Shown here: positions 5,335-57,299 of the stretch, one piece after another
Position numbering within the stretch: position 1 is the stretch's first letter
Layout of the letters: every line of letters starts with the position of its first letter
Origin: Fistulifera solaris
Taxonomy: Eukaryota
Reading direction: 5' to 3'
NCBI GenBank assembly: GCA_030295235.1
Contig: AP026164.1
Span: 558,001-622,000 of the forward strand
Length of the DNA: 64,000 nt
Notes under the pieces: generated by a model
The model's database searches: none
The model's input: the letters and a program-made list of their open reading frames with translations, nothing else
What the model was told of the DNA's origin: nothing
Made by a program: the position numbers and the translations under genes

Positions 5335-8300
5335 ATGCTGGCAACAGAACCGACTACGCAGAGATCACGGAAATTGAAATATTTACAGCAACAGGAACGG
5401 CGGATTTCTGCACTTTTAGACGTTAGTTACGTAACGAATCGCATCATTGCCGCTTCGCAACCCATTCCGGACGATGAACCAACCTATCGAGATCTGGGAC
5501 GGTCAACTTGTGAAGGAGAATCATTCACGCAAAGCGAACAACAAAGAGACGCCTCGGAACGTAGTGCAGGCATGTATCAGGAATTAGAAGATTCTGTTTC
5601 ATCTGCCCGGCAAGTTTCTTATTCAAATTTTGGTGAAATCGGCAAATCAGACTTTCAAAGTCCCAATGACAACGATGATACGTCCTTAAGCTTACAATCC
5701 GACATCCGGTCTCGCAGAACTTTCAACTCGTCAGTCAGAAACGAAAACAATCCACGAAGAAACTATGCACACTCGTTGGCTAAATTCCTGAATAAGAAAC
5801 ACGGAGAGGGCAATTACCTTTTGTTTTCATTATGCGATGATCAAGCGGATGACTCCACATTGTTTCACCTGCGGCGTCAAATTGTACAATTGCCTTGGAA
5901 ATCCTCCAGAGATAATGCTTCGGAGCTTCCTACGGTCCCTTCATTGCTGGATATCTGCTACGCTTTTCATGCATGGCTAAACATGGAGGGCATTTCGGTC
6001 GGAAACGAAGGTCACTCGTCGCTCAAGCGATCGCAACACGTGGGCGTGATTTATTGTCCCAACGGAAAGACTCGAACGGCTATTGCTATCGCTTGCTATC
6101 TCAAGTTCACTGGTCAAGTGGACAAGACTGAAGATGGCTTCTTACTCTTCCTCGAACAGCGATGTCCGGATAGTGAGCTTTCACCGGCTACTGTGGCCAA
6201 AGCTCTCCCCGCGTCCATTCGTACTTTCTTTAGAAATTTTGATTCCACGATCAAGCTTAAGCGATATATGAATCAACAACCGCTCTTACTTCGGTCAATA
6301 GTAATGCGTGGCCTTCCGGTTGAAGAGAAACCGTGTTTGAATATTTTCAACGCTCAAGGTGACCATGTGTATTCCAGTCACCCTGACTTGTTTGGAGATA
6401 TATCCGTGACGAACCCTTATGCCCAGCAAGATCCCGGTCATTGGGAGGAAGAGGAAGGTTTCTTTCCAGTCAACCAGATCTTGGAAGGGGACTTCTATTT
6501 GCTGTGCCGATTCGGAGGACACTACGCAGACGATCTCTCTGATCCATCAAAGATCATTTTTCGTTATGCAAACACAACAAGTTTTCTTGGAGCTGGACCT
6601 ATCCACTTACGATGTGATAGAGTTGATCTGATGCGTCGATACGCGCACCTAATTGATTACAAGGAATTTTTACTCTCTATGACGTTTGAAGCATCTTGGA
6701 ATTGCTCTAGTCAGCAAGAAGCACCTTTGCTACAGAGAGATAGTATATCTGACAATGTTCTTTACGTGCGAAGCGGGTACGAGGCTATGGAACAAGGCTG
6801 GGAAATAATTTCACGGCATCATTGCGCAAAGCCAGTGACCATCGATGTCGACCTTTTACGAGCCTCCTGTGAAAGTCTACATGATTGTCCTTCTCATCTT
6901 TCCGCTTTGGCCTTGCAGCTTAGCAACTTTGATTTGAATAGCGCTAAAAACATGCTCACAGAAGGAAAAATGAGTCTTTGGTGGAGTCGTCGGACAGCGA
7001 CAGAGGCTCCATCTCTCCAATATCAATCGATTAGCCATACACAGCCCACTGTTCGGCCAGAACATCTTGAAATAAGAAACCGTATTTTAAATTTGGTCAG
7101 GGGTGTTGGTGCACTATCGACATCATTTGGGAATGACTCGTTTCAGACAAGGGCAACGAAGCCATCCACTGAAGATATTGAAGAAGGATACACACCAGTA
7201 AAACGGCCAGATGCAGCTTCTTGGTATACATCCCCATTGATGCGACCCAAGTCGGGCGACATCACAAATGCAATCGGCAAGGCTAAATTCATTTACCCAA
7301 ATTCAGACCATCCATTACGCCGAAAAGAACAACCTCTCGTTCCCTTTTTTCCGCACCCGTTACCTATGAAAGAAGGAACAAGTAGCGTGCTTGATGATCC
7401 CCAGAATCGCAATGCTTTTGACATGTTGATGCTTTCTAGCCCTCCTAACATTTCCATGAATGATTTACTTGCATTGCAGCGTTATCTCAGAGGTGAAAGG
7501 GAGCGTCCTCATCCAGAAACAGCTAAGATATGCGGTGATGGTACAGAAATCATGCTAGGTCGTGGAGCAACCAATGACCTCAGCAAACTACCTGGCGACA
7601 AGAATGAAAGTGTCGTCGACATGAAAAGGACAGCATATCCTTCGGAAAAACCAGCTCTCACAAATGCAAAAACTAATCTCATATCGTATACTCCGTTGAA
7701 AGATGATGAATGTTTTTCGAAGTACTACAAGATGCTGAAGATGGGCCTACCGCGAGGCGCTGTTGAGAATGCAATGACTCGAGATGGCGCTGACTTGTCG
7801 CTGCTTGATTTGGATCCTGAAAAGAGTCTTGTGTCTCAGAGACCGACACAGGCTGTATCCTCGGACCGTCCGTTGAAAGATGATGAATGTTTTTCGAAGT
7901 ACTACAAGATGCTGAAGATGGGCCTACCGCGAGGCGCTGTTGAGAATGCAATGACTCGAGATGGCGCTGACTTGTCGCTGCTTGATTTGGATCCTGAAAA
8001 GAGTCTTGTGTCTCAGAGACCGACACAGGCTGTATCCTCGGACCGTCCGTTGAAAGATGATGAATGTTTTTCGAAGTACTACAAGATGCTGAAGATGGGC
8101 CTACCGCGAGGCGCTGTTGAGAATGCAATGACTCGAGATGGCGCTGACTTGTCGCTGCTTGATTTGGATCCTGAAAAGAGTCTTGTGTCTCAGAGACCGA
8201 CACAGGCTGTATCCTCGGACCGTCCGTTGAAAGATGATGAATGTTTTTCGAAGTACTACAAGATGCTGAAGATGGGCCTACCGCGAGGCGCTGTTGAGAA

Positions 8301-11300
8301 TGCAATGACTCGAGATGGCGCTGACTTGTCGCTGCTTGATTTGGATCCTGAAAAGAGTCTTGTGTCTCAGAGACCGACACAGGCTGTATCCTCGGACCGT
8401 CCGTTGAAAGATGATGAATGTTTTTCGAAGTACTACAAGATGCTGAAGATGGGCCTACCGCGAGGCGCTGTTGAGAATGCAATGACTCGAGATGGCGCTG
8501 ACTTGTCGCTGCTTGATTTGGATCCTGAAAAGAGTCTTGTGTCTCAGAGACCGACACAGGCTGTATCCTCGGACCGTCCGTTGAAAGATGATGAATGTTT
8601 TTCGAAGTACTACAAGATGCTGAAGATGGGCCTACCGCGAGGCGCTGTTGAGAATGCAATGACTCGAGATGGCGCTGACTTGTCGCTGCTTGATTTGGAC
8701 CCTGAAAAGAGTCTTGTGTCTCAGAGACCGACACAGGCTGTATCCTCGGACCGTCCGTTGAAAGATGATGAATGTTTTTCGAAGTACTACAAGATGCTGA
8801 AGATGGGCCTACCGCGAGGCGCTGTTGAGAATGCAATGACTCGAGATGGCGCTGACTTGTCGCTGCTTGATTTGGATCCTGAAAAGAGTCTTGTGTCTCA
8901 GAGACCGACACAGGCTGTATCCTCGGACCGTCCGTTGAAAGATGATGAATGTTTTTCGAAGTACTACAAGATGCTGAAGATGGGCCTACCGCGAGGCGCT
9001 GTTGAGAATGCAATGACTCGAGATGGCGCTGACTTGTCGCTGCTTGATTTGGATCCTGAAAAGAGTCTTGTGTCTCAGAGACCGACACAGGCTGTATCCT
9101 CGGACCGTCCGTTGAAAGATGATGAATGTTTTTCGAAGTACTACAAGATGCTGAAGATGGGCCTACCGCGAGGCGCTGTTGAGAATGCAATGACTCGAGA
9201 TGGCGCTGACTTGTCGCTGCTTGATTTGGACCCAGATAGAAGTCTCATCTCCCAACAAAGCAATATCGCGAACAATAAATTTGGAACTAAGGAGACTCTT
9301 TCAAACACGGCCGAGTTTAATCAGTTTCAAGCCGAGGATATTGCTTCTCAGAAAGCATCTAATTCTCATCTAAGGGCAGAGCCACGACTGAACGCAGGAA
9401 AAAAGAATGTGAGACGGAAAAAGATATATTGGAATCCAATAAACCCCGGGGGAATTGAAAGAGGATTCTTTGTGGTCGTTGGTGAAAGGAAAAGTGCCGA
9501 TGGACAGTTTAAAGTACGATGTTCGAGAGTTCGAGGATCTTTTTACCGAGTCGCCTGATGCAGCAAAAACCAAAACAATAAAAGCAGAGAAAAGAGTAGA
9601 AACAAAGAGGAGCGTCCAGGTTGTTGATGGGAAACGATCCATGAACGGAGGCATTATTCTTAAGCGTTTAAGGATCGAGTATAAGGTGCTTGCTGAGATG
9701 GTCGAATCAATGTAAGTAAGATCTTGATGACGCTTTGTCGTTCAAAGCAAAGCTTTTCTTATGGCATCGTTTACGCCCCAGGGAAATTGGAGCTCTGGAC
9801 GCAACATCGATCAAAGCGCTGAAAGAATACCTACCTACTGCTGACGAAAGAAACCAGCTTCAATCCTATTTACAAGCGGCTGGTGAATCCAAGGAGAAAC
9901 GAGAAAAGCTCTACGGTGATCTGAGTGATTGTGAGAAGTACATGATTTGCATGATGGACGTAGCTAAAGCCGAAGATCACTTCGATTGCATGTTATTCCG
10001 GGTGCAATTCCGATCCAGATTCGACGAACTTACTGAGTGTCTTAGGACGGTAGACAAAGCTTGTGATGAGGTCAGGTTTTCTGAAAAATTTCGACAGATT
10101 ATGGCAATAATACTAACCGTGGTCAATCAAATCAACACGGGTGGCGAAGGAAAGGGTCAGGCTATGGGTTTTAACCTTGAGACACTTTTGAAGCTTAATG
10201 AGGTATGTCTTTTTGGCTTGTCAATGGACATCTTCGCAAATCTCATCTTTCTACTCAAATCAGGCGAAGGCTTTTGATAAAAAAGACAAGCGTTCTTCAA
10301 TATCTCATCAAAGTGGTCAAACGAAACGACGAGTCGCTAATTGAATTTCATGAAGACCTTCCACATACCAACGACTCAGCAAACATTATATTGGATTCTC
10401 TATGTTCTGATATCAAAGCATTAAAGGAAGAACTTGAAAAATTATTTAAAACATCACAAGAGCAAGCAGACGAGCTCTTGGACCTTGGGATAGCATCTAA
10501 ACTCTCTCTTTCGGAATTGAAAGAGCAGAAAACGAACGTTCGTACTCTTTCGGGTGTTTCACAATTCAACCAGGTAGATCATTTAACGGGTAGAACACCT
10601 ATGGAAAGGTTTTGCCTACATGCAAAAGCATCAATCGACGAGGCTAATCAGCTGACTTCGCAAGTCCAGGTCAAGTTTAGAAGCCTTTTGCAATACTTTG
10701 GAGAGGACGAGAAGATGGCTAGTAATGAATTCTTTGGGACACTCAAACGGTTTATCGCAGATTTTAAGAACGCAAATCAAATTGTACAGAAAAAGGAGAA
10801 CATGCGGGTACGTTTTCTGAATAACATACATCTGAAAATTAATTTGAAGCATTGCTCACATTGCTGAAGCTGCGAGAGATGAAAAGACAAGAGAGCATGA
10901 TACAGACAGACCGACGGATCGGCTTAGAGAAACAAAGTAAACAAGCATTCCACGCAACAGAAGTCACCAAATCTAGTCCCATGAGCTCAGCATCAGCGAT
11001 CTCTGCATTCTTTGCAGCAAAGAAGGAAGCGGATTCTCGGCTTTTTGTTTCGGATTCCGCCACCGGTGGCGTGAGTTTTGTTGACACAACACCAATTGAC
11101 TATTCCAGTTCAGCCTCAGGAGAGGCACAGTTGTCAGCTGGTACTGATGTAGACCAAGGCATTGATGGAGAAGCGGACAAAAGGGTGGTTTGTGAACCAG
11201 GAAAATTGTCGCCACATGCAGCAGTTGTGGTCTCCGCGTCTTCTACATCGAGAAAACAAGGCTCCTTTTCAGAAGGAGACCAAACCGATACGGTTAGTAC

Positions 11301-11535
11301 CATCGGCGCTAGCGCTGCAAGCACACCATCTGTAGATTGTTGCGATTCGTCACCCGCAGTCATTTGCGTTGATGAGGAGAAAGAAAAAGGACTTTTTGAA
11401 TTGTCGAATGCTTGCGAAGTAGGCAAGGGTGGAGGCGGCGAAGGAGATTCTAAAATTCCGAGTGTGGCATCGGCTATCTCTGAGTTTTTTGCAGCAAAGA
11501 AATTGGAAAGACATTCGTCAAACACCAAAGTCTGA
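5335..11535 (+). CDS. Formin with N-terminal PTEN-like phosphatase/C2 region, tandem CCDC53-like repeats and FH2 domain
   Basis: LDVSYVTNRIIA and YCPNGKTRTAIAIACYL (PTEN/tensin-like), C2-like segment, FH2 motifs (RRKKIYW, SLW, VVDGKRSMNGGI, GFNLETLLKL, KKTSVLQYL, YFGED..FF). Introns 9712-9781, 10203-10263 and ~10808-10869; indels at ~9450 and ~10280. 3' end uncertain. Confidence 0.9.
7693..9235 (+). repeat. Coding tandem repeat, 177-bp (59-aa) unit, 8 full copies plus 1 truncated
   Basis: Unit starts (ccgttgaaagatgatgaa) at 7693, 7870, 8047, 8224, 8401, 8578, 8755, 8932, 9109; among the full copies I see only a synonymous T>C at 8700. Confidence 0.98.
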
Positions 11536-11784
11536 TTTAATTATCGGTGGAGTTGGTATTGATGTTCCCGCACCACCCGCCAACTGTTGCGATACGGCAA
11601 AAGTCGTGCCTAATGGAAAAGAGGACGATCATTCTCAATTGTCGACTGATGATATTCACACAGAATCTTCGAGGTGAAGAATATTATAGAAGCGATTGAA
11701 GTGAATCTTATCGCACTGAGCGTAACACAACAAAAGATGGAGAAACTAGAGCAAATAAAAAAATCGACCACGAAACTGTTTGCG

Positions 11785-13600
11785 CACGGAATCGGACAGT
11801 GTCACATGGAAGAGCTTCGCTCCTCGCCATCACCGCCACGCGCATCCATCAGCCGTATTTATATAGTAATTAAAATTATTTGGTTTTGAAATGAACAAGT
11901 GTTAGCATGTAGGAGTTGTGGTATACATTTTTCATTGTGCCGGGACATATGGGGGACCCTTGCGAGTGCCCGTAACCGCTAACCTATTTCTAGGATAACT
12001 CATAAGCACCGCAAGAGCTCCGAAGACGTTAAGCAGATGTCAACAAGCGATCACAAACGCCCATGTATCCGGTTGGGAGCGGAAAGGCGAATGTGGCTTT
12101 CATAAGCTGCTCAGCGGGTGAACCCCAAACCCCGCTCAACCGTTACCATTGCTTCACCAATCACTGGCGCACACAGTTCTTCGGCACGCCTCATGGATCC
12201 CACAACTCAGGTGAAGAACTTTTCCCAGCACAATGCTCCAACTGCGTGTTTTCCGGTAAGGCAGGAAGCCTCGCAAGCAGGCAAGCGAATCGTCGAGACG
12301 ACACGAGGTTGCCGTTTCGCGAGACGACTCCTCCTTCCTCGGGACATACGCACCACAGCCCTTCATGCGCTCCCACTATGTATTCAACCATACGGTCCCA
12401 AGCTGTGATCGCAGGCCACAGCTTTGGCAACAACTGAATACGGGGAGGACATCAAACCTCTCTCAGTCGCCTTTGAGAGGAGATGTGAGAAGAAGAAGAA
12501 CGCAGCGAAAAAATAGACAAAGATGTTTGGCGATGCTTCTCCGCTTCTCCTATCGTAAAATCAAAATCAGTTTGTGTTCACAAACTCAATTTAAAAATCA
12601 TTTAGAGGGAACTATCTAAGTATTTCTATTTCGAGCAACGGTTTTCTCCATGTATTGGTTGGGATCCCACCACCCACGAATGAATGTCACGATATACGCG
12701 TCTGCATATCTTTCAATCATGATGAGCGCAGCTGCGAGCCCGGCCTGCTCGTATCTCACAAGTAAAGCACGTGTTCAAAATTCAATTTGGAATAAGGGGG
12801 GAAAGAATGGAAGTCAAGTCCATTATAGGCACTTTTGTTTGCCCCGACTTTGATGATGGGTGAGAGTGAGCACGACGATTTTTGTTTAACGCGTTCGTGC
12901 TTTGCTTTTCAGTCTTGTTGAAAACGGGTGTGACTATGTAACGATTAATTTTACTTAAAGACTGGGTACCGATGTGCATGAGTGAGAGACGAGCTAGGAT
13001 GGTCATGAGTCAATTTAAACTCCGTGTAGGAATTTCATGTTGTTGTGTCATCGGGAGCTTTTCAATCGCAATTCTTCAATGTGTATTTGGTTAGTGTGTC
13101 TGTGTCTGCTCATTGTCAGCGACGAGGTGACTACGGAGTACTTTTTATTTTACTTTTTTTACAAAAGAAGGACGACGGAGGACAACAAAAGCGAACAGAA
13201 CGAGACAATACAAGATACAAGTATCGAGTACGGAATAACAATCCTCTCGACTGATGATAATGCGGAAGGGAAACGATTAGGAAAAGAAGCTACGATATCA
13301 CGACAACAGCGATCACCACTCGTTGAGATTTCCGAGGATGTCATCTGACGCGTTGTAGACGATCTGCTGTATTTGTGGGTGTCATTCCGCGAGTAATCGC
13401 AAAAATGAATGAGTGTCCTTTTACTGTGCTAGAGGAACCGCCATCCGCTTTGGAAATCTTGCACGATTGTGTTTCGCTTGGTTGACCTCTTTTTATTCGA
13501 AAGGCAATATCTTTTTGTTGCACAGTCTCAAAATTGGTGTATCCCTGTCTGCAAATGAAACGCCTCGTTGATGTATCACCCGATGGGCATGCGGATGTGC
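11785..13600. repeat. Dispersed ~1.8-kb repeat, copy 1
   Basis: Near-identical direct match to ~54882-56530; this copy has an extra ~140 bp at 12920-13059. Confidence 0.95.
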
Positions 13601-14552
13601 TTCGCCGTATACAGTTTTCTGCAGAAAGGCAAGACGAAAATGTTCCTGCAGATGACCACTCGTATAAAAGCGATTGTATCCAAACCTTATTCGTTCAGCT
13701 CGACCAACGATGTATGACCGTCGAACTCATTCAATGACACACCAATCATTAAAACAATCAGCAAATAAGGCACAAGAACGTTTATTCACATCGATAGTCA
13801 TGTTCCCGTGCATTAGCATCTGACAACGGCAGAAAAAAACAACGATCCGTACAGCGAAGACTAGCCGCGACAAACGATTGTTTTCGGCAAGAGTTGACGT
13901 GGATCTGGTAGACGACGACAGCCCATGACACCAATCAAGTACCTTAGACCTTTGCATGGGCGGAAAAAGCGTTCGGAGCAGGACCATCGTATCCTGTAGA
14001 ATTTGTGGATGGGAAATTAGCATTGCACAGGGATCAATCACTCCGAGAATCTATTCTATCAGGTACTGGAATGAGGAAATGATGGTGTCTTCGTTCCTCC
14101 CTTGAAGTAAGGGTGCTGTGCCCTCTTTGCACAATGGTCCCATAGCACTGCCGTCTATCAGACCAGTCAGAATTTTTGAATCATTGTTGAAAGTAAAAGC
14201 CGCCATTAAGTGGGCCGGGGATGCGAAGAATCGAAAAAACTAAACCTTTTATGCGATAATTTTCTGTCAGAAAGACGCTGTTGCTTCCCAATCATTACGG
14301 TATGATGTACCGTAGCAAGTCTAATTTTTTCTTTTTCGTGAAAAGTTTCCCCGATACTGTCTCGAAAAAGCACAGGAATGGAACAAAATAGGATGTAGGG
14401 TGTAAACCTTAGTAACTCGGACTGAAAATCAATCACGAGACATCTTTCGTGCAAATTTTACACCATGACAATAACCTGTGAAAGGAAGCAAGAAACAACG
14501 CGTCGAATGAGAAGATCAACGATAAACAGAATGATCTTCCATTTTCAAAAGA

Positions 14553-17328
14553 ATGCCTATGCCATATACTGAGATTCAGCAAAGTGATAGGGAGAAAGAG
14601 CTTGACGGACACCAAACTTCGATCGGAAGTACGGAGGGCGCCTCGCCTCTTGAGATTGAGAACGATGACACTTATTATGACTTCGCTGAGCAAGCACTTT
14701 CTTGGAAACATCCGTGGTTTTTCACGGCGCCTTTGATACTATTGCTGGAAGTACCTCTGCTAAGTGGTAACGCGCTTGTCTTTTATCATTTAACTGGTCG
14801 AGTGTGGGCTGCTACGCTACCAATGCTTCACCTCTTGCTGGCTTTCCTTTCTATTCGCTGCTCTGTGGTCGATGCAACTAATCGTGAGATAAACAGCACG
14901 AGACTGGTGATATCTCTCTCACTTTTGGCTGACATACTTCTCGCTGGCTTTTTCTACCCTTTCTTCTACCATAATATTAAGGAGGCATTTTTCATTGAAC
15001 CAGACGGCACGGATGTCATCGAATGGTCCAACTACAAGCGACTCTTTGATTTATTCGCTTTCAGTTCGAGGGTATATTTCATTTTAAGAACGATACTATC
15101 CACAGTTGGCTGTCTAGCACGCTTTCAAATTGAATGGCCGTTTCTTGTCGCGAAATGTATCACGTCACCAATCTGCTCACTGCCTGCGGAAAAGGAATAT
15201 AGACTGCGGTCTTCCGTGCAGCGTATCTCGTTCTCAGGTATCATCATTGCAACTTTTTTTCTCTTCGTGGTGCATCTTTTCTGTTGCCGTACACTTTCTA
15301 CCTCCTTTTTCGCTTCGACGGAACGCGGACGCAAACGAGTTTTGCGACCCGATAGATGAAACGGAATGCCTTTTGCCTTTCCCGTCTTTCTTTCATTTAA
15401 GGCCGGATGAAACGTCCGAGACGGGTTGGCGAGTAAACCTACAAGAGGCGTCGCTTCCATTGTTACGAGGTGGAATTTCTATGCATGCCGAGTTCTACAA
15501 CGAACTTGATGGATTTTCAACGATGGGTCCAATTCTCTTTTATATAAATGGTCTAAAGGAGGCGCACGAAGCCGGGTTAAATCAGTTGAAAGGCCTAAGG
15601 GAGATTGCAAAGTCTATAACGCAAGAGTCGGTAACCTTTTTGATTGACGTGGAAGGCGCAACGTTGGTCCCACATAGCGCGGAGATTGACTACCTTGATC
15701 CAAATCATCCCATGGTTTTGCTATTTCCAGCGAGGCCACTGAAGCATAACACTCATTATGCTGTGGCCATCGTGAATGCAACAAATGGCAACGGGGGATT
15801 ACTCGCTCGTAGTAGTGCGATGGAGAACCTTTTTCAGGAGAAACAAGCAGAGCAGCCTACAGGTTCGACTAAACCGGATCAAGGACGAATGTATCGATAC
15901 ATAAGCGAAGTGATTCCAGCTTTACAGAGAGCAGCCAGTTGGCTGAATCTCTCGGAAAATCCGGCAGAGCTTCAACTTTTGTTCGATTTTCACACTATAA
16001 GCGAAACTTCCCAGTTGTCACCCGCGCGAGCAGTTCGCGATGGTACGTTCGCTAAAATTTCAAATGAGAAAGAATGGAGGTGGGATGAACATGTCAGGAC
16101 TAACCGCATCGAGGAATATTCTTGTGATGAACCAGAAAGTGTTCTGGCACGTACAGTTCATGCTGAGATGGATGTTCCGTGGTTTCTACAACACTTTGGT
16201 CCTGGTCATCGAGGGGCATTTCTCGATCCCCAAGCCTTAGATAAAGGCCATGCGTCGTCTCTTGGCATTGCAAAATTTTTACTTCACCTCCCTTGCTCAG
16301 CGCGTTCTGCAGCTCTTGGGTATGATCAGTCAAAACCCATACGCGGCATTATGGAGTACGGTCATGGACTATTTTTTAGTCGCTCCGAGGCTTCAGATGA
16401 TTTTCTCCTCCAAATGGCTCATGACGAAGGATATATTATCATGGCAATGGACTGGCGTGGCATGTCCGTTTTCGATCTGCTGGTTGTAATAAAGACTTTG
16501 ATATCGAAGCCGAGTCAGTTCCAATCGGTTCGAGACAATTTAATACAGGGATATGCAAACAAAATAGCCCTACAGCACTTTGCAAGGAATGCAATGATGG
16601 CGATGGATTGGTTCGATTTTGCAGAGAATGACGCTGTCCTGCGATCCGTCCCTTTCGCAAATGACCAATCTTTATCATTTGTATTCTACGGCATTTCACA
16701 AGGCGGAATATTGGGAGCCGGCTATTGTAGCTTAGCAGGGACAACGGCTTTAATCGATCGAGCCATACTTGGTGTCCCAGGGACTCCTTTTGCTCTGATA
16801 ATGACTCGATCTTTAGACTTCCAAGGCTATGATAGATTGCTTTTGATGAATTTCATGACTAACCGACACGTCCGTATCTTTTTGACGATCATACAAATGG
16901 GATGGGATGCCACCGAAGGTGCTGGTTTCCTCGCACCCCCTATCCGAGAACCTTATCCGCGCATGCTTCTACAAGCAGGGCTAGGAGACGTTATCGTACC
17001 AGCTCTTGCAGCCGAGGCTCTTGCCAGAGCTTTCAACGCCACTCTACTACCAGGAAATCCGCGAGACGTTTATGGCTTAGAGCGTGGACAAGCGGCGTCC
17101 TCGACTTCCATTGGACCGAACGTCACATTCACTGAGCTTCTGTTTACGAACGACTACTCCTCTCTACCACTCGACAACACTTTCGCTGTCGACAACCCGA
17201 TTCATGATTGTGTTCGAAGAGACAAAGCATTGATAACACAGATAACAGAATTTATCAATACTGGACGCATAGTAGACCCCTGTGAGTCGGACAACTGTAT
17301 TCGAGAAAAAGATAGTTGTTGGGACTAG
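14553..17328 (+). CDS. Membrane-anchored alpha/beta-hydrolase-fold protein of bacterial type
   Basis: N-terminal multi-TM ORF joined by a T-run indel (~15260) to a domain with CLLPFPS..TGWRV, NELDGFS, YGHGLF, DWRGM, nucleophile elbow YGISQGG, GLGDVIVP and a late His (IHD). Confidence 0.7.
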
Positions 17329-41632: not shown

Positions 41633-41828
41633 TGACTTGACTCACAAGGAATGTATTTGATGATAAAGATATATTATAAGCATGTTAACAGCTAAAGTAA
41701 AGATGAGCAGGACGCAGTTCTCAATAGATGAGAACCAAGCGTAAATGGAATCGATAATAGATTGCCATGATCCATAATCTTCTAAGAACAGAACGTAAAG
41801 AACAAGAGAGGACATGTAGTGTACTGCA
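41633..41828 (-). repeat. 3' LTR
   Basis: 196 bp; preceded on the minus strand by the polypurine tract GGGAGGCAGAA (41829-41839). Confidence 0.97.
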
Positions 41829-41874
41829 TTCTGCCTCCCAACATATCTTGAAAAGTAATGTTGCTTGAGATAGA

Positions 41875-44800
41875 TCAATGTAGATAAGGTTTGACTCGTC
41901 GGATATTGATATGTTCTTGAACGGTGTCGTTGAGTTGGATAGTTAAATTTCCGTTCTGAAATACTTCGACAACTTTATAGGGTCCAATTGCTCGATCTTG
42001 TAGTTTTGATGGTTGGTAGACTAGTTTGAGGACTTCCATTCCTGGTCTGTAGTTGAAAGGGAATCGTTTTTGGTTTGCTAAGACTGTTCGTTCGTCGATG
42101 AGTTGTTGTCTATTCTGTTGAATGGTGATCCAATCAGCAACAACTGGTATATCAAGTATCATGTCCGACCAAAAACTAGGGCTCCCGGTGTGGCTTTGAG
42201 TCCTCCATGACACGACGCTCTAAGTGCAAAGACGGTATTTGCTAGGGCGGTGTCAACCATGAGTTTTCCTGTTTCCAAGGCTGTTGGTGGATTCAAAGAG
42301 GACATCGTTCGTAGAATATTACCAACTGATTGATGCATACGTTCGCAGATCGCGTTTGATGTTGGCGTCTTCTTGTTTGAAGGTGATTTGTGGATTCCAT
42401 ATTTTTGTAGAGTGATTTGAAATCCATAGCCAATAAATTCACCACCTTGATTGAATGTGCAGAATAATGGTCGTGGATATTTTGATAGCCAAGCGTTGTG
42501 AAGTTGCAAGGCGACATAATCGCACGCTTGTTGTCTAGTCGTATGAGTTCTGCAAGGTTGGTTACCGGATCGATGATTGAAAGGGCGATGAAACTGTGCT
42601 CGTGACCGGCTATTTGAAGAGTCCATGGTCCTATGAGATCAACACAAATGTCTCTCCATGGATGAATATTTGCTTCGTGGCGGTAGTTCTCCGTATCCGC
42701 GTTGAAGTTGCTTCTTTCATTGGCATTCGTCGCACCTTGATACGTAGTCATCGATTTTATTTCGTAATTGGGAGTTGTAAAGATGTGTGGAGATGGTGTC
42801 GAATAGTCGACTTCTTCCTAGATGACCGAGTACAAAGTGGTACCATGCCACTGTCTCATGTAATAGTTCATCTGGTAAATAGATCTTCCACGGTTCATTT
42901 GGTTTTGGAATGAAACATATAACATAAACATTGGGTGCGAGCATTTGTTCGCAAAATGATTGTGGATATTTTTGTCGTAGCGTTTGCAAACGGCGTCCCT
43001 CGTTTGTACCGCTCGAAGCCTCTTGTAATCTAAGACAAAGGGCGCCACTTCATTGAGTGGTAGATTGACAAAGCAACTCTTAAGGTCGTCATCGTCGATG
43101 GCCATTGAATAAAATGTTTGACTTCCCTCTTCGGTGGAGTCAACGTATTGTGGTTCGAACCTGTTAAGAATTTCTTCGTCAAATGGCAAGCGTGAGAGAG
43201 CGTCCTGCTAATGGATTATCTTCACCTTTGATATGGTGTAAGTATGTACCGTATTCATCAAGAAAAGTCTTCCATCGTAGTATTCTTTGTGATGTGTATT
43301 TTTCGAAGACATTGTTTCGATGGTCCGTATAGACATGAAGGTCTGGACATCCATAGAGCATGGTACCGAAACTCGTGTAGTATCTTGACAATAGATAAGA
43401 GTTCTTTTTCTCCTGTAGTGTAATTTCGTTGTGCAGCGTCGAAGTTTTTTGGTATAGTAGGCGACTGGCATTTTGTCTTGAAATATGGCCGCGCCCATTT
43501 GTTCATTGCTTGCGTCGGCATAAATATGGAACGGTTTGTTATGATTTGGGTACTGGAGAAAGGCATCTTGAGCCAGTAGTGCTTTAATTTGCTTGAATGC
43601 TTGTTCCATTTCGTTAGTCCAGTTAAGCTCTTTGCCTTTCGTTGCCGTTGCTTTTGATAATGGTGCAAGAATATGAGCTCGACGAGGGTACATATCGCGA
43701 TAAAAATTGATAGCTCCAAGGAAGCTTCGTAATTGATGAACGTCTTTTGGTTGCTTGAGCGCGAGGGATGGGAGTTATACGTTTTTTCCAAGGTTTTAGA
43801 CCATTCGGTGTTAACCAGTATCCTAGCCAATCCGTTTCTTGAACTCCCCATTCGCATTTTGAAGGATTGACAATGAAGTTATTGTCTTGCAATGTCATTA
43901 AGACTCGGTCAAGAAGTTTAAGATGAGCTTCCCACGAAGTCTGAAAAGCATCCGACATCGTCGATGTAGACTTCAACGTCTTCAAAGTTTCGAAATATCT
44001 TTTCCATCTTCTCTTGAGATATGTCGGGAGACTGTGATATTCCCATTGGTAATCTGTTATATCGGTAATTTCCAAATGGCTGCACAAATGACGCAAAGAT
44101 TCTTGCTTTCTTCGCCGAGTTCGAAAGTATAAAACTGCATTGAGATGTCGAGTTTCGTAAGATAGCGATATCCCTTCCGTCGTTTGAGAATGTCGGTAAT
44201 GATTGGAAGGTTGTAGACTTTTCGGCTTGATAACTTTATTCAATTGACGGAAGTCTGAGATCCATCGAACTCGACCATCTTTTTTTGGAATAATAAATGA
44301 AGGTGAAAGCCATTCGGATGGTCCAAATTTCGATAGGACTCCGATAGCTTCAAGATGTTCTAGCTCGCCTTTGAAGGTAGTTCGGTTGTATGGCGAGATT
44401 GGATAATATCGGCATGCGTGTGGTTTGCTTCCAGGTTGGATATCTATGTGGACTTTTTCCGGAAAGCATCCAAGTTTGCCTGAAAATAAACGCTTGTATT
44501 TTGATAGTAGACTTGCGAGTTGGTCCTTTTGCACATCGTTTAGATGATCTTGCTTTTGTGCGATTATATTTGGATTGGTTTCTTCATATTTCGCTGGTAG
44601 AATCTCTTTTGATTTGTATCCTGCCTCCTTGATTTGTTCTTCTGTAATGAAAGTTTCGAACGAATTAATTTTATCGTTTTCAAAGAGATCGGACATGGAG
44701 GTAAAGTGTGCAGAGAAGTAGTTCGGTATAAAATAGTCACTTGATCAAAATGGTATTTGGTTTTCGAACCATGATACTGTTTTCGTTGAATTGTGAATGT

Positions 44801-45119
44801 CGATTCCGAGTTTGGTCATTAAGTCATTTCCGATGATTACGTCATAGATCGTTTGAACGTTATTGAAAATGATACATGGAAGTGGACCTGGCACTCGTTG
44901 AGAGGCGGAAAACTCGGGTAACGAGATGTCTTGAAGTTCAACTTGATTGTTATGGGTTTCAACGCCATGAAGACCGACGATGCGTTTACCTTGAATGAGT
45001 TTTGGCGTCGCACCTTTTGGTAAAGCTCTTCGATTAAACATTGTATGATCTGATCCTGAATCAAACAATATTTTTAATGGATGCTTGTTTTCTTGGCCTT
45101 GAATATATTTAGCTGACAT
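41875..45119 (-). CDS. pol: Pol polyprotein (protease, RT, RNase H, integrase; multiple frameshifts)
   Basis: LFDSGS protease; PKKDGRVRWISDFRQLN and YIDD (RT); YADAS, YTDHRN (RNase H); HHCC, DLIGP, NAICERMH, GPY motif (integrase). Confidence 0.93.
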
Positions 45120-45299
45120 GATAGTTATAGGACGAGGGCGTGTCTTGCGATTGTTGTATCATGTAATTAGGTATTAATTTAATGTCTAAATCTCCAGAAT
45201 AATAAATATCGTCGCATAAAGATGTGAATGATATAGAAGAAGATACATTTGATTCACTCTGCGAAGACGATATTCTGGGATCAGACAATAAATTTTCAT

Positions 45300-46359
45300 C
45301 GGCGGTTGTTACGGCTTAACGATGACATACCATAAAACTGATTCGGATACAAGTCGTTGTCGCCATCATTCCGGCTGGTTTTGAAGGAGTTTCTTGTGCG
45401 ATTTTTGCATGATCTTGAGGTGCTGTCTTGCTGTTCTTGGTTTCATTGATCTTGCGGATTTTATTTGGATTGTAGTTATTTCCGTTTCGATTATACCAAC
45501 AGTAGTTCCAATCATGATGACTCACACCGTTTTTATCAAGGCATTAAGCGCTTTCGGCAGTCACCAACCGCTTTAAAAGTCTTGCGTTTGTTACTGCCTC
45601 CGTTGTTCTTGTTTCCTTGATTATTTCCTTGATTGATGTCGTTATTCTTGCCTTTCCATTTGTTGTTGGAACGATCGTTGTTTTGTTTCTTGCTTGAATT
45701 TTGTTGAGGATTTTTCTTAGCGATATTTTGTTGCTTGATGAAATATTCCAAAACTTCTCCCTTACTGATTCTGGCTAAATCAAAGGAGCTTTTATCAAAG
45801 GACTTTTGCCACCACTCGGGCATAGCACCATAAATCGCATGCTTGAGTGTCGATTCATCGAGTTTCATTGCATTTCCAGGGAGAAGACTTATCCAGTTGT
45901 TTGCTTCTTCCATCAAAATGTTAAATTGACTCCACGTCCATTGTGAAAGGAAGACGACTGTTTCGAATTTCTTCAATAAGACTGAAGCTGGTATTTGCTT
46001 TATAAAACTTGTTGATGAAGTTCTTGAGCTTCGACTTGAATGTTTTGCTTCCATTGTTTTCCGTCCATGCTGAAATAAAATTTGGAGAAAGCGTTCGCGG
46101 AAATAATTGCATGCACGTTTTTTTCAATCTTCTTCTCGGTTTTTTCTGATTCTTCTCCACCGATTGCTTGTTTGACATAATAAGGTAGTTGCGTGCAATG
46201 TCTCATGAACGGCGTGAATTCAATTTTCGTCAATCGCTTGATATGAATTTCATACTTCACTCCTTCGAGCTCCCATTTGAATTGGATCTCTTGAACATTT
46301 TCTTCATCCTTGTATCCGGGGTTGAAGTAAACATTACTGGTTGATTTCTTGGCTGCCAT
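45300..46359 (-). CDS. gag: Gag-like protein (frameshifted in this assembly)
   Basis: Follows the 5' LTR; AMPEWWQ capsid-like motif, Asn/Lys-rich linker, degenerate Zn-knuckle (...HDWNYC). End approximate. Confidence 0.75.
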
Positions 46360-46397
46360 GGTGTATTCGATATGAGCGTAGCGTCCTGTGATCACAA

Positions 46398-46593
46398 TGA
46401 CTTGACTCACAAGGAATGTATTTGATGATAAAGATATATTATAAGCATGTTAACAGCTAAAGTAAAGATGAGCAGGACGCAGTTCTCAATAGATGAGAAC
46501 CAAGCGTAAATGGAATCGATAATAGATTGCCATGATCCATAATCTTCTAAGAACAGAACGTAAAGAACAAGAGAGGACATGTAGTGTACTGCA
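46398..46593 (-). repeat. 5' LTR
   Basis: 196 bp, TG...CA, identical to 41633-41828. Confidence 0.97.
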
Positions 46594-52754: not shown

Positions 52755-54074
52755 ATGTCTTTTCGCATTGTGTGCTACCTGTTATTAACTACTCATTGTT
52801 CATCATTTTTCACACAAAATAGAGTTACGCTGGCATCATTTCGATTGAATACAACACCATTATTGTTTACCATGAAACGAACCAGAAACGAGGATGCACC
52901 TCAAAAGGATCCGTCGCTATCATCACTAGAAACAATCCGCTTTGTCGAGTTTTATGCTGGAATCGGCGGATGGACTATGGCGCTACAACAAGTAGTAGAG
53001 CGGGGGCATTCCGACCTTTCCGGCTTGCGATTCGAATGCGTCGCTGCTCTCGATCATTCGGATCTGTGCAAAGTTGTGTACGAACACAACCACAAACCCG
53101 TCACCTTGTCAAATCGACCAATCCAAAAACTTACGGTCGGTCAAGTGGAAGAGTGGCAAGCCGATTTGTTCGTCATGAGTCCTCCTTGTCAACCACACAG
53201 TCGTCAGCATACGCATCAAGAGCGGGAATTGCAAGACAAGCGGTCCGAGAGCTTTCTGCACTTGTGTGAGTTAATTCAGTCTCTTTCGACCGTACCTTCC
53301 GTTATTTTGCTGGAAAATGTGGTTGGATTTGAACGATCGCAAAGTTTTTCCTACTTTCAGAAAGTTTTGAAGGATCGGAATTATCAGTGCTGTCATTTCA
53401 TAATTAATCCCAGTCAAGTTGGATTACCTAACGATCGACCTCGTTTCTATTCTGTGGCTGTACAAAACAATTATATCAAGCTAGAGAAAGATTCTTGGCA
53501 AAGCAAGTTCTTTACAAAACCGTCCGATGACATTAGTGCGGAGGTTATCATTCACACGGAAATTCCCGAGTTGGGAGTGAACGCGATGAACAGCATCATT
53601 GAAAAGGATATACCCAAGCTCCAACATTTCCTCGATAATCCGCCCGATCCGCGTTTGAGCATTCCAGAGAAGGTTTATCAAAAGCGAGCCGCCTGGTGTC
53701 TTGACATTGTCACTCCCGAACAACGACGCACATCGTGTTTCACGTCGGGGTATGGGAAATTTGTTCGCGGCACTGGCAGCGTCTTGTACACTGGAGAGGG
53801 AACGTTTGAGCTGGTAGCACCCGAACAGCGCGAATACGATGCTGAGTGGGACAAGGAATTGGATTGGACGAAAGCGCGGTACTTTTCTGGTTCCGAGTTG
53901 GCTCGTCTATTTGACTTCTCGAATGAATTTGCTTTTCCACGAACAGTATCACTGGGACAGCAGTGGAAGCTTGTGGGTAATTCACTGAATGTGAGAGTCG
54001 CTGCTCGACTATTGGAGTTTGCGTTTAGGGTACGCAGGAACCCGTTGCCGATAAATTTGGTCGGCACCCATTAG
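52755..54074 (+). CDS. DNMT2: DNMT2/TRDMT1 tRNA C5-methyltransferase
   Basis: EFYAGIGG, MSPPCQPHSR, LLENV, PNDRPRFY, the DNMT2-specific CFT motif (CFTSGYG), LVGNSLNV; no large N-terminal regulatory domain. Confidence 0.93.
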   Translation: MSFRIVCYLLLTTHCSSFFTQNRVTLASFRLNTTPLLFTMKRTRNEDAPQKDPSLSSLETIRFVEFYAGIGGWTMALQQVVERGHSDLSGLRFECVAALDHSDLCKVVYEHNHKPVTLSNRPIQKLTVGQVEEWQADLFVMSPPCQPHSRQHTHQERELQDKRSESFLHLCELIQSLSTVPSVILLENVVGFERSQSFSYFQKVLKDRNYQCCHFIINPSQVGLPNDRPRFYSVAVQNNYIKLEKDSWQSKFFTKPSDDISAEVIIHTEIPELGVNAMNSIIEKDIPKLQHFLDNPPDPRLSIPEKVYQKRAAWCLDIVTPEQRRTSCFTSGYGKFVRGTGSVLYTGEGTFELVAPEQREYDAEWDKELDWTKARYFSGSELARLFDFSNEFAFPRTVSLGQQWKLVGNSLNVRVAARLLEFAFRVRRNPLPINLVGTH

Positions 54075-54881
54075 AGCTGCGGCAATGCAAACGACGATAT
54101 TAAGATGCGCTGGGTGCAAAGCAAGGGGGAGGTGAGGATTTTATTTGACTTCGCCCGTCTTGACGCTGTGGAGTCGATTCAAAGCGGAAATTACTCGACT
54201 AATGGGTCGCAATTCCGCGACAGATGAGCATTTCTTGGTTGAGCTGGATGGTAGGCATGTATACAGGAATGACATTGGGGTATGTCGCGTTGGCATTGCT
54301 CTTTGGCTATGTCTGTTTTACAGCGTATGTAGTTTCGGTTCAGAACTAATTAGTCTTCCCCTCTTGGCATCAATGATGTAACCTGTATGATTTCCGTACA
54401 AAGAAGCACGCGCCCTCCTAGCCATACGTCCTTCAGTGCTGAATGAGCCACGAAACCTCTCGGCGAGCCCCTATTCTCCCCTATGATGTTAACCCTTAGG
54501 GTTCTGTTCCAAATAGCTGTGCTAGAGCGGCACATTAAGACGGCATGAGAGAAGAAAAAGAAGAGATAGGGTCCATTCGAATAGTGGACCCAAAGGAACC
54601 GAGTAGAGTAATGGAAGCATGATGGGAAACATTACCAACATGTTGTGGGCCTTGGTTCAACAATTGATTTCGATGTCGGCTCTGTTCCTCAGCTCTTTGT
54701 CGGTGGCAGGGAGAAATTGAAGTAAATTCTTTGCCCAAAGCGCACCACATCGAGTGGAGCAGATACTAGCTAGGGCAAGTAATAACAATTTACAAAGCAG
54801 CATACATGAGTTCGCGTGCAATGAGCAACAAAGGCACAAAACAAGTAGTTCAAGCCGAACGACCATAAAACCGTTTAGACA

Positions 54882-56530
54882 CACGGAATTGGACAGTGTC
54901 ACATGGAAGAGCTTCGCTCCTCGCCATCACCGCCACGCGCATCCATCAGTTGCATTTATAAATTAATTAAAATTATTCGCTTTTGAAATGAACAAATGTT
55001 AGCATGAAGGTGTTGTGGTATACATTTTTCATTGTGCTGGGACATATGGGGGACCCTTGCTAGTGCCCGTAACCGCTAACCTATTTCTAGGATAACTCAT
55101 AAGCACCGCAAGAGCTCCGAAGACGTTAAGCAGATGTCAACAAGCGATCACAAACGCCCATGTATCCGGTTGGGAGCGGAAAGGCGAATGTGGCTTTCAT
55201 AAGCTGCTCAGCGGGTGAACCCCAAACCCCGCTCAACCGTTACCATTGCTTCACCAATCACCGGCGCACGCAGTTCTTCGGCACGCCTCATGGATCCCAC
55301 AACTCAGGTGAAGAACTTTTCCCAGCACAATGCTCCAACTGCGTGTTTTCCGGTAAGGCAGGAAGCCTCGCAAGCAGGCAAGCGAATCGTCGAGACGACA
55401 CGAGGTTGCCCTTTGGCGAGACGACTCCTCCTTCCTCGGGACATACGCACCACAACCCTTCATGCGCTCCCACTTTGTATTCAACCATACGGTCCCAAGC
55501 TGTGATCGCAGGCCACAGCTTTGGCAACAACTGAATACGGGGAGGACATCAAACCTCTCTCAGTCGCCTTTGAGAGGAGATGTGAGAAGAAGAAGAACGC
55601 AGCGAAAAAAGAGAGAAAGATGTTTGGCGATGCTTCTCCGCTTCTCCTATCGTAAAATCAAAATCAGTTTGTGTTCACAAACTCATTTTAAAATCATTTA
55701 GAGGGAACTATCTAAGTATTTCTATTTCGAGCAACGGTTTTCTCCATGTATAGGTTGGGATCCCACCACCCACGAATGAATGTCACGATGTACGCGTCTG
55801 CATATCTTTCAATCATGATGAGCGCAGCTGCGAGCCCGGCCTGCTCGTTTCTCACAAGTAAAACACGCGTTCAAAATTCAATTTGGAATAAGGGGGGAAA
55901 GAATGCAAGTCAAGTCCATTATAGGCACTTTTGTTTGCCCCGACTTTGATGATGGGTGAGAGTGAGCACGACGATTTTTGTTTAACGCGTTCGTGCTTTG
56001 CTTTTCAGTCTTGTTATTTCAATCGCAATTCTTCAATGTGTATTTGGTTAGTGTGTCTGTGTCTGCTCATTGTCAGCGACGAGGTGACTACGGAGTACTT
56101 TTTATTTTACTTTTTTTACAAAAGAAGGACGACGGAGGACAACAAAAGCGAACAGAACGAGACAATACAAGATACAAGTATCGAGTACGGAATAACAATC
56201 TTCTTAACTGATGATAATGCGGAAGGGAAACGATTAGGAAACGAAGCTACGATATCACGACAACAGCGATCACCACTCGTTGAGATTTCCGTGGATGTCA
56301 TCTGACGCGTTGTAGACGATCTGCTGTATTTGTGGGTGTCATTCCTCGAGTAATCGCAAAAATGAATGAATGTCCTTTTACTGTGCTAGCGGAACCGCCA
56401 TCCGCTTTGGAAATCTTGCGCGATTGTGTTTCGCTTGGTTGACCTCTTTTCATTCGAAAGGCAATATCTTTTTGTTGCACGGTCTCAAATTTGGTGTATC
56501 GCTATCTGCCTCGTTGATGTATCATCCGAT
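54882..56530. repeat. Dispersed repeat, copy 2
   Basis: Near-identical direct match to 11785-13600, lacking the 140-bp segment. Confidence 0.95.
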
Positions 56531-56810
56531 GGCAGAGGCCTGTTCGCCGTGCACCTTTTCCCGCAAAGGCACAGACGACGGCGATTCATTCAAGTGTAAA
56601 TGATGTGTATCCCTGCACTATCCGTGCAACCAGAGCAACGATGTATGACGGTCGAATCCTTTTGCCAGCGTCTCTTCTATCAATAAAGCAAATAGCGGAA
56701 AACCACACTCTCGTGCATTCTTGACAATTCGCAAGCAATCGACAAGCTGCATTGTGGACGCGGTGATCTTGCTTGTTATCTCTTTCGCACAAAAAGATCG
56801 CACACTTACA

Positions 56811-57089
56811 ACCAAGTTAAAAAGATTACTCAACGATCGACCTCGTTTCTAATTTGTACCCGAACAGCGCAAATACGATGCTGGAAACAAGGATCTGGAT
56901 TGCACGAAAGCGCGGAACTTTTCTGGTTCCGAGTTTACTTGTCTGTTTGATTTTCATAATGATTTTGGGTTCCCACGAACCGTAACACTGGGACAACAGT
57001 GGGAGTTTGTGGGTGATCCACTGAATGTGAGAGTCGCTGCTCGACCGTTGGAGTTTGCGGTTAGGGCACACAGGGACCCGTTACTAATA
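56811..57089 (+). pseudogene. Decayed, internally deleted partial DNMT2 copy
   Basis: gattactcaacgatcgacctcgtttcta matches ~53422-53449 and is joined directly to sequence matching ~53818-54053 (cccgaacagcgc...cactgaatgtgagagtcgctgctcgac) with many substitutions. Confidence 0.88.
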
Positions 57090-57299
57090 CATGATGTTAA
57101 CAAAGGCTTGTAATGACTAGACTTGACTTTGAGATTTATTGGAGCTTCTGTTGATTTTAAATGTAGCACTGACATAACCGTGTCAAGAGAAAGCAATTTG
57201 ACTTGCCCTTCGCGTGGAGACTTGAGACAGCACCTCATCACAGAACTGAACCAGACAAAGTGCTCGCTTTACTTAAGTTCATTAATTTTCTTGACTGGA

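Follow-up and report, generated by a model that had tools for sequence, protein, structure and literature searches.

Here, we characterized a GC-rich core of 541 nt (11940-12480) in the window, that is, in the whole 64-kb stretch of Fistulifera solaris DNA that was analyzed. Within a multi-copy family, a piece of which is carried by a low-copy duplication of about 1.8 kb, the core is the part with the highest abundance and the best conservation. On balance, we favor the view that it belongs, as the non-coding and best-conserved part, to a nuclear family of interspersed repeats in a Fistulifera-like diatom, and that it most likely represents a piece of a mobile element.

A low-copy duplication carrying a piece of a high-copy family

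A sequence-only reading of this DNA had proposed that an element of 1.8 kb is duplicated in the window, with a second core at ~55037-55575. Both statements hold, since 11765-13637 matches 54860-56578 at 92-97% identity and the core recurs at ~55037-55577. The features of the duplication are as follows:

11765-13637, no strand assigned: duplicated segment of ~1.8 kb, copy 1, delimited by blastn and by alignment against copy 2
54860-56578, no strand assigned: duplicated segment, copy 2, without the counterpart of 12920-13059 of copy 1 and with an 11-nt deletion near its right end
11940-12480, minus strand (tentative): GC-rich core, copy 1
55037-55577, minus strand (tentative): core, copy 2, with 8 substitutions and no indels relative to copy 1
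11900-12762, no strand assigned: high-copy unit within the duplication, delimited by contig depth in run X1, its left limit being approximate
12920-13059, no strand assigned: 140-bp insert found in copy 1 only, seen as an indel in the alignment of the copies

By blastn, the identity of the two copies amounts to 96.9% between 11765-12919 and 54860-56015, and to 92.4% between 13060-13637 and 56017-56578. A third copy of the segment was not found within the 64-kb window. At the right end of the duplication, similarity in the alignment of the two copies declines gradually, with no sharp stop. The copies of the core differ at 11941, 11964, 12165, 12173, 12314, 12318, 12358, and 12378. GC content is 54.7% in the core, relative to 45.7% in the window and 41-43% in the parts adjoining the core. 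An LTR element is located in the same window (41633-46593), and blastn detected no similarity between it and either the core or the duplicated segment. Both copies of the segment lie downstream of plus-strand genes. The window is a compact eukaryotic region, and the domains encoded by its ORFs include UPF1, C5 DNA methylase, aspartyl protease, and GMP synthase. The product of the GMP synthase ORF shares 99% identity with a protein of F. solaris and ~80% with those of other diatoms. Neither rRNA nor tRNA was detected anywhere in the window (no match at the Rfam gathering level and no gene predicted by ARAGORN).

Contigs of four public runs (X1, X5, X6, and X7) were aligned to 11000-15000. In run X1 (85% of sampled words; library type only guessed), depth stayed level at 15-18 over the unique flanks, where one contig of 1515 nt spans intergenic DNA, and the run thus appears to behave as DNA of the window's organism. 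Summed contig depth in X1, which here and in all depth figures below is not equivalent to copy number, was 20-60 times that of the flanks over ~11900-12762, with bin means of 424-935 over 11938-12741 vs. 15-18 on the flanks. At single places, depth was ~112-123 at 11853-11866, 987 at 11941, and 17.7 at 12767. Within the unit, depth declines with rising coordinate, from 935 to 650, to 424-507, and then to 102. The remainder of the 1.8-kb segment is present in low copy, with a depth of 37-46 over 13144-13545 in the same run.

The 232 contigs of X1 aligned to 11000-15000 comprise 85 with at least 99% identity to the window, 63 with 95-99%, 64 with 90-95%, and 20 with less than 90%, so that 147 of the 232 fall below 99%. 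One variant, at 12628, is shared by up to 16 different contigs, and the longest X1 contig in the core measures 130 nt (depth 429). The occurrence of many short, non-identical contigs over a continuous stretch of ~860 bp indicates that many slightly different copies exist; sequence was readable for two copies only, the remaining variation being taken from the contig differences listed. Four contigs of other copies run past 12762 into one common sequence (loose-end agreement 0.92). This common continuation indicates that the family unit is longer than the part held by the window, and that the window copies were cut or rearranged at that point. Even with up to 3 mismatches allowed, the 21-letter common continuation of the other copies is absent from the window. 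Anchors of 24 and 20 nt taken from the conserved part had no exact matches in collections of metagenome, viral, and prokaryote contigs.

The two copies in the window did not arise by independent insertion. Each sits in the same low-copy segment of ~1.8 kb, and the segment itself was duplicated, or its copies were homogenized by gene conversion, over a distance of 43 kb. The 140-bp insert has a different history, being a member of a separate, very abundant, short (~100-140-bp) dispersed repeat that was inserted later into copy 1. Its depth in X1 was 1380.8 in the bin 12876-13009. The loose ends before 12919/12923 and behind 13015 showed low agreement (0.53-0.66), indicating that the flanks differ among the copies of this repeat.

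Coding potential and relatives of the core

The core had been described as lacking a credible ORF, and our searches agree with this description. An open frame of 134 codons occupies 12033-12437 on the plus strand; it gave no Pfam match and no homolog in a word-indexed protein search, and its single match among 1.84 billion representatives was P0121 (86 aa, E = 2.3e-11), which, together with its one cluster-mate, derives from ENA metagenome contigs. When aligned by tblastn, P0121 follows one frame of the window to ~12170 and another from ~12183, and has Q at the position of a stop codon in the window. The frame switch and the read-through stop indicate that open frames differ between relatives, with the 134-codon frame not being kept, and that the region is non-coding, a view to which a 1-nt deletion at 12119 in X5 adds. 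Searches of Pfam with 11 ORFs of the element, and with 4 more on the minus strand, yielded nothing that reached the cut-off. A 117-aa ORF had no homologs, and a 52-aa minus-strand ORF (12619-12774) had no usable match in the protein Atlas. The latter was considered as a possible C-terminus of an element protein and was dropped, as its listed variants occur at third codon positions in 3 of 9 cases, which is no excess.

Pieces of 11839-12566 were also found in X5 and X6, which are DNA runs labelled with other organisms, and in X7, a freshwater metatranscriptome, at 87-100% identity. Some of these pieces are nearly identical to the window, with 2 differences over 350 nt in X6 and none over 121 nt in one contig of X7. 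Contigs of X7, an RNA library, span 12010-12473; they show neither strand nor ends and may include carried-over DNA. Runs X5, X6, and X7 had no cover on the unique flanks, which by itself counts as no evidence but would fit samples containing little of the organism, from which only multi-copy DNA was assembled. Additionally, two ENA metagenome contigs (559 and 1106 nt) encode P0121 and P0122, which match 12012-12255.

A diverged version, referred to here as the B-type, was represented by an X5 contig over 11927-12083 with 21 differences and 2 indels relative to the window. The changes of the B-type are also readable in a loose end of X7 and match P0121, and the sequences from X5, X7, and P0121 were counted as one lineage. 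Over ~11941-12063, the window type and the B-type differ by roughly 15%. Over 12064-12212, a single-base deletion at 12119 (X5) is the only one among the differences listed. A near-invariant stretch (~12064-12118) adjoins a diverged hairpin, which is described below.

Folding of the core and conservation of pairing

The core had also been portrayed as packed with nested stems. The three stems given as examples do occur where they had been placed, with z-scores between -0.5 and -1.8, but the abundance of stems does not go beyond chance. None of the 24 core windows of 80 nt passed the 1% level (-2.58) on either strand, this level being set by 300 background windows of 80 nt (mean z -0.04, sd 1.04), and the means of the core windows were -0.08 on the plus and -0.44 on the minus strand. 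For the whole core of 541 nt, z was -2.51 on the plus strand, where 1 of 100 shuffles folded as well, and -1.79 on the minus strand, where 4 of 100 did; the mean was -0.78 (sd 0.99) for 14 control segments of 541 nt from the window, one of which reached -2.51 with a z of its own of -2.58. A folding energy no better than that of shuffles had been named as a result that would count against a structured RNA, and on both strands the z-score of the core lies within the genomic background.

Several stems had been said to extend by G-U pairs on the minus strand, and folding is indeed more stable there: the energy of 11950-12025 is -33.0 kcal/mol on the minus strand and -22.7 kcal/mol on the plus strand. 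The composition of the core on the plus strand is A138 C166 G130 T107; the minus strand is rich in G and U, so that the extra G-U pairs and the lower energies found there are partly a matter of composition. The stable tetraloops that had been proposed (UUCG, GCAA, and CUUG) were not recovered as loops, since CTTCGG, CGCAAG, and GCTTGC are all present but form parts of stems in both MFE folds. At the tips of hairpins, these folds show a single classic tetraloop, a GAAA on the minus strand, at 11990-11987, which caps the first of two long hairpins:

11955-12020, minus strand: long imperfect hairpin of ~28 bp, with 6 G-U pairs and the GAAA cap at 11990-11987
12255-12345, minus strand: second long hairpin, with no usable variation

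Framed as 11950-12025, the first hairpin had a z of -3.45 on the minus and -2.03 on the plus strand, the frame having been chosen after the fold was seen. The corresponding values for 12255-12345, whose frame was chosen in the same way, were -2.63 and -1.63.

No known RNA family had been recognized from the letters of the sequence, and a search against Rfam (4227 models) is in agreement, with no match at the gathering threshold in the whole window. When matches at E up to 10 were admitted for 11600-13800, six were obtained, the best with E = 0.93 and all at 18.2 bits or less, far below threshold. Telomerase RNA was considered as well and rejected, as CTAACC at 11979-11984 lacks a full template and the element is multi-copy.

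Conservation of pairing was assessed by mapping the 18 listed substitutions of the B-type onto the MFE folds of the minus and plus strands. Three compensatory double changes were found on the minus strand, at 11981/11996 (A-T to T-A), 11986/11991 (A-T to C-G), and 12030/12063 (T-A to C-G). The pair 11986/11991 closes the GAAA loop, and the pair 12030/12063 has a pair probability of only 0.37. Single changes at 11961, 11966, 12004, 12017, and 12062 keep the minus-strand pairing, several of them as G-U; in the plus-strand fold, the first four are broken or unpaired, whereas 12062 is paired there too. The same changes were then moved to random positions of the same base 20,000 times. In the 541-nt minus-strand MFE fold, 3 doubles were observed vs. 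0.31 expected (P = 0.0023), and 8 pairs were kept with 3 broken (P = 0.0027). The plus strand had 1 double (P = 0.25). A local fold of 157 nt on the minus strand gave a weaker signal, with 2 doubles (P = 0.035) and a P of 0.17 for the fraction of pairs kept. When the B-type changes and both indels were applied, the hairpin re-formed with 27 pairs on the minus strand (-27.1 kcal/mol) and collapsed on the plus strand. In an energy test of the 11955-12020 hairpin, 34% of random placements folded at least as well (P = 0.34).

When the window type is compared with the B-type, 11955-12020 alone among the elements shows compensatory changes. This signal is suggestive and strand-specific, and it comes from one lineage comparison and from a structure derived from the reference. 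The GAAA-capped hairpin may be a conserved RNA signal of the minus strand. Double changes of this kind could also arise at the DNA level, by template switching in an imperfect palindrome, with no RNA function involved.

Other pairings behaved differently. The B-type does not retain the stem at 12175-12220: its 5' arm is apparently missing there (loose end before 12183; frame switch), and a G>A change at 12213 breaks a pair. Mapped onto the minus-strand MFE fold, the eight differences between the two core copies include one that keeps a pair, two that break one, and five at unpaired positions. A swap at 12314/12318 (G...C to C...G between the copies) was considered as a case of covariation and rejected, as in both MFE folds these bases have other partners, with which pairing is lost. 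The same swap could retain a mini-hairpin of 2 bp.

Nature of the repeat and competing explanations

The element was compared with known classes of mobile DNA. The search for terminal inverted repeats at the ends of the unit and of the 1.8-kb segment gave a best score of 15, vs. a shuffle mean of 14.3 ± 2.3, and terminal direct repeats at the ends of either did not rise above chance. No poly(A), A-rich, or simple-repeat tail and no target-site duplication was found at ~11900-11935 or at 12762 on either strand, a weak test because the window copy may be cut at 12762. The motif ACAAGT, found at 11896-11901 and 12758-12763, was rejected as a target-site duplication because other copies match the window up to 12762. 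Pfam searches revealed no ORF for a reverse transcriptase or a transposase within the element or adjoining it, and a SINE head of tRNA, 5S, or 7SL type was not detected (no gene by ARAGORN and no tRNA, 5S, or SRP match in Rfam).

Copia-type LTR retrotransposons (CoDi) are the dominant class of repeats in diatoms. Like these, the unit could begin with TGTG (11935) and end with CACA (12758-12761) as possible LTR ends. Unlike them, it has no target-site duplication, the flanks TTCAT and AGTAA being different, and the sequence of other copies past 12762 resembles neither a primer-binding site nor a polypurine tract. "Stringent" non-LTR retrotransposons and their partner SINEs possess 3' stem-loops that are recognized by the reverse transcriptase. 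Our family resembles these systems in being multi-copy and non-coding, in having one end that is best conserved and most abundant, in its hairpin with compensatory changes, and in a depth that falls toward the presumed 5' side. It differs from them in that we saw neither an ORF for a reverse transcriptase nor a tail repeat, poly(A), or target-site duplication. Another likeness, by description and between unrelated organisms, is to the SIDER retroposons of Leishmania, which are reported to measure ~0.55 kb and to occur in 3' UTRs (PMC11520807; PMC2689281). SIDERs are half-kilobase, non-coding retroposon relics downstream of genes, and both window copies likewise lie downstream of genes; a regulatory role of the core would be pure conjecture.

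We infer that the family is mobile, and the mechanism that we prefer is that of a retroelement read on the minus strand, of which the window would hold the 3'-terminal untranslated part. The window copy would have been broken off at 12762, on its minus-strand 5' side, with other copies carrying shared internal sequence onward, and the GAAA-capped hairpin at 11955-12020 could act as an RNA signal, for example for recognition by the reverse transcriptase. A retroelement 3' end would fit because depth falls with coordinate, because other copies continue past 12762, and because the conserved, structured part lies at the low end. The sequence-only reading had offered a minus-strand structured RNA, which would be either an unknown ncRNA or the product of a non-autonomous retroelement. 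The multi-copy state lends support to the side of this proposal that concerns a repeat element, whereas a structured RNA is unproven, with no Rfam family and with folding at background level.

A further-reaching reading, which we consider unlikely, is that the core is a lineage-specific, multi-copy structured RNA of the minus strand, conserved among Fistulifera-like diatoms and expressed in freshwater communities. With its GNRA-capped long hairpin and an almost invariant segment of 55 nt, such an RNA could be a new ncRNA family or a new non-autonomous diatom retroelement. Less probable still is a free-standing family of multi-copy structured ncRNA genes of ~0.3-0.85 kb on the minus strand, serving the cell. 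It would account for a GC-rich island (54.7%) in AT-richer surroundings, for the near-invariant ~12064-12118 beside a diverged hairpin whose pairs are kept, for a GNRA loop with a covarying closing pair, and for the span of 12010-12473 by contigs of an RNA library. That library may, however, contain carried-over DNA, and further points argue against such a gene: no Rfam family appears even at E up to 10, the folding energy is within background, usable covariation is missing from most of the core, the B-type has lost one stem, and no promoter or terminator was identified. Moreover, the extension of other copies past 12762 makes the unit longer than an RNA gene of such a size.

Between these two in probability, and likewise unlikely, stands the explanation that the core is a nuclear fragment of some other high-copy sequence, either an rDNA spacer or a mitochondrial repeat region, which lies within the 1.8-kb duplication and whose depth reflects its source. 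The mitochondrial genome of F. solaris is reported to contain eight blocks of repeats, which measure 345-943 bp and occur in both orientations (bioRxiv 10.1101/2021.11.10.468027, section 9). Compared by description, these blocks resemble the high-depth unit (~860 bp) in their size range, in being non-coding, and in their high copy, and the continuation past 12762, identical in four contigs, would suit a fixed array. The up to 16 different contigs per place, with an average depth of ~46 each, and the length of only 130 nt of the longest core contig nevertheless fit many unequal copies better than eight equimolar blocks or a homogenized array. Spacer and organelle sequences are transcribed and are the first to appear in samples with little of an organism. 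Diatom mitochondrial DNA typically has roughly 30% GC, however, and the 54.7% of the core is far from this value and argues against a block of this kind; nor is there any rRNA or tRNA in the window to indicate an rDNA or organelle source. Finally, it is highly improbable that the core is ordinary, non-functional intergenic DNA that was duplicated once, with stems due to chance and depth due to unrelated short repeats. Folding statistics within background and the gradual fading of the duplication borders would be consistent with this explanation, but the high depth is continuous over ~860 bp, and diverged versions of the core occur in three other runs and in two metagenome contigs.

In the accessible portions of the literature found on Fistulifera genomes, transposable elements, and ncRNA, and on diatom retroelements, the core repeat is not described, and SINE-like elements of diatoms did not turn up in the portions searched. 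The preprint on the chromosome-scale assembly of F. solaris mentions, in its available part, other highly repeated elements without homology to known sequences (bioRxiv 10.1101/2021.11.10.468027). In general, the repeats of F. solaris are barely described, and the accessible literature mentions transposable elements only in passing. As it stands, the core belongs to an ordinary, unclassified interspersed repeat and probably derives from a mobile element. If well defined, a family that has type-specific versions could help to distinguish the two chromosome sets that this hybrid pennate diatom received from its parents; repeat markers for the parental sets were named, and not carried out, in a 2018 paper, as far as its available text goes (PMC5935921). 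Should the hairpin prove to be an RNA signal, an active system of retroelements in diatoms would be indicated.

Sequence features of the duplicated segment

Of the two copies of the duplicated segment, only copy 1 (11765-13637) carries a 140-bp insert, at 12920-13059. The insert is a member of a very abundant short dispersed repeat, with a bin depth of 1381 (summed contig depth, not copy number) in X1, a public sequencing run behaving like DNA of the window's organism, where its contigs have loose ends, continuing past the match into flanks that are unlike one another. Its borders read TTGAAAA ... TTTTCAA; a search for a longer inverted repeat at the insert gave none. Within the GC-rich core, positions 12054-12118 are almost identical, among the differences listed, between the repeat version of the window and the diverged B-type version, in contrast to the adjoining 11941-12063, where the two differ by ~15%.

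Genes beside the two copies

Upstream of copy 1, the long ORF at 5335-9558 contains a perfect tandem repeat of a 177-nt unit (7692-9230; 8.7 copies, 99% matches). The peptide from each unit matches Pfam CCDC53, a WASH complex subunit, giving nine matched stretches. From 9558 to 11677, the large gene 5′ of copy 1 runs on through ORFs in changing frames:

9735-10277, ORF
10205-10867, ORF
10852-11535, ORF

The changes of frame could reflect introns or single-base errors in the assembly.

Around copy 2, the 3′ end of a C5 DNA methylase gene (53851-54056) recurs ~3 kb downstream at 56887-57092 with 83% identity; thus, the block containing copy 2 is bracketed by this gene end and its degenerate second copy.

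An LTR-retrotransposon-like element

A ~4.96-kb LTR-retrotransposon-like element lies at 41633-46593, with direct repeats of 196 nt that are 100% identical to each other. It contains a weak RVT_1 match on the minus strand, and its reading frames are fragmented into many short ORFs.
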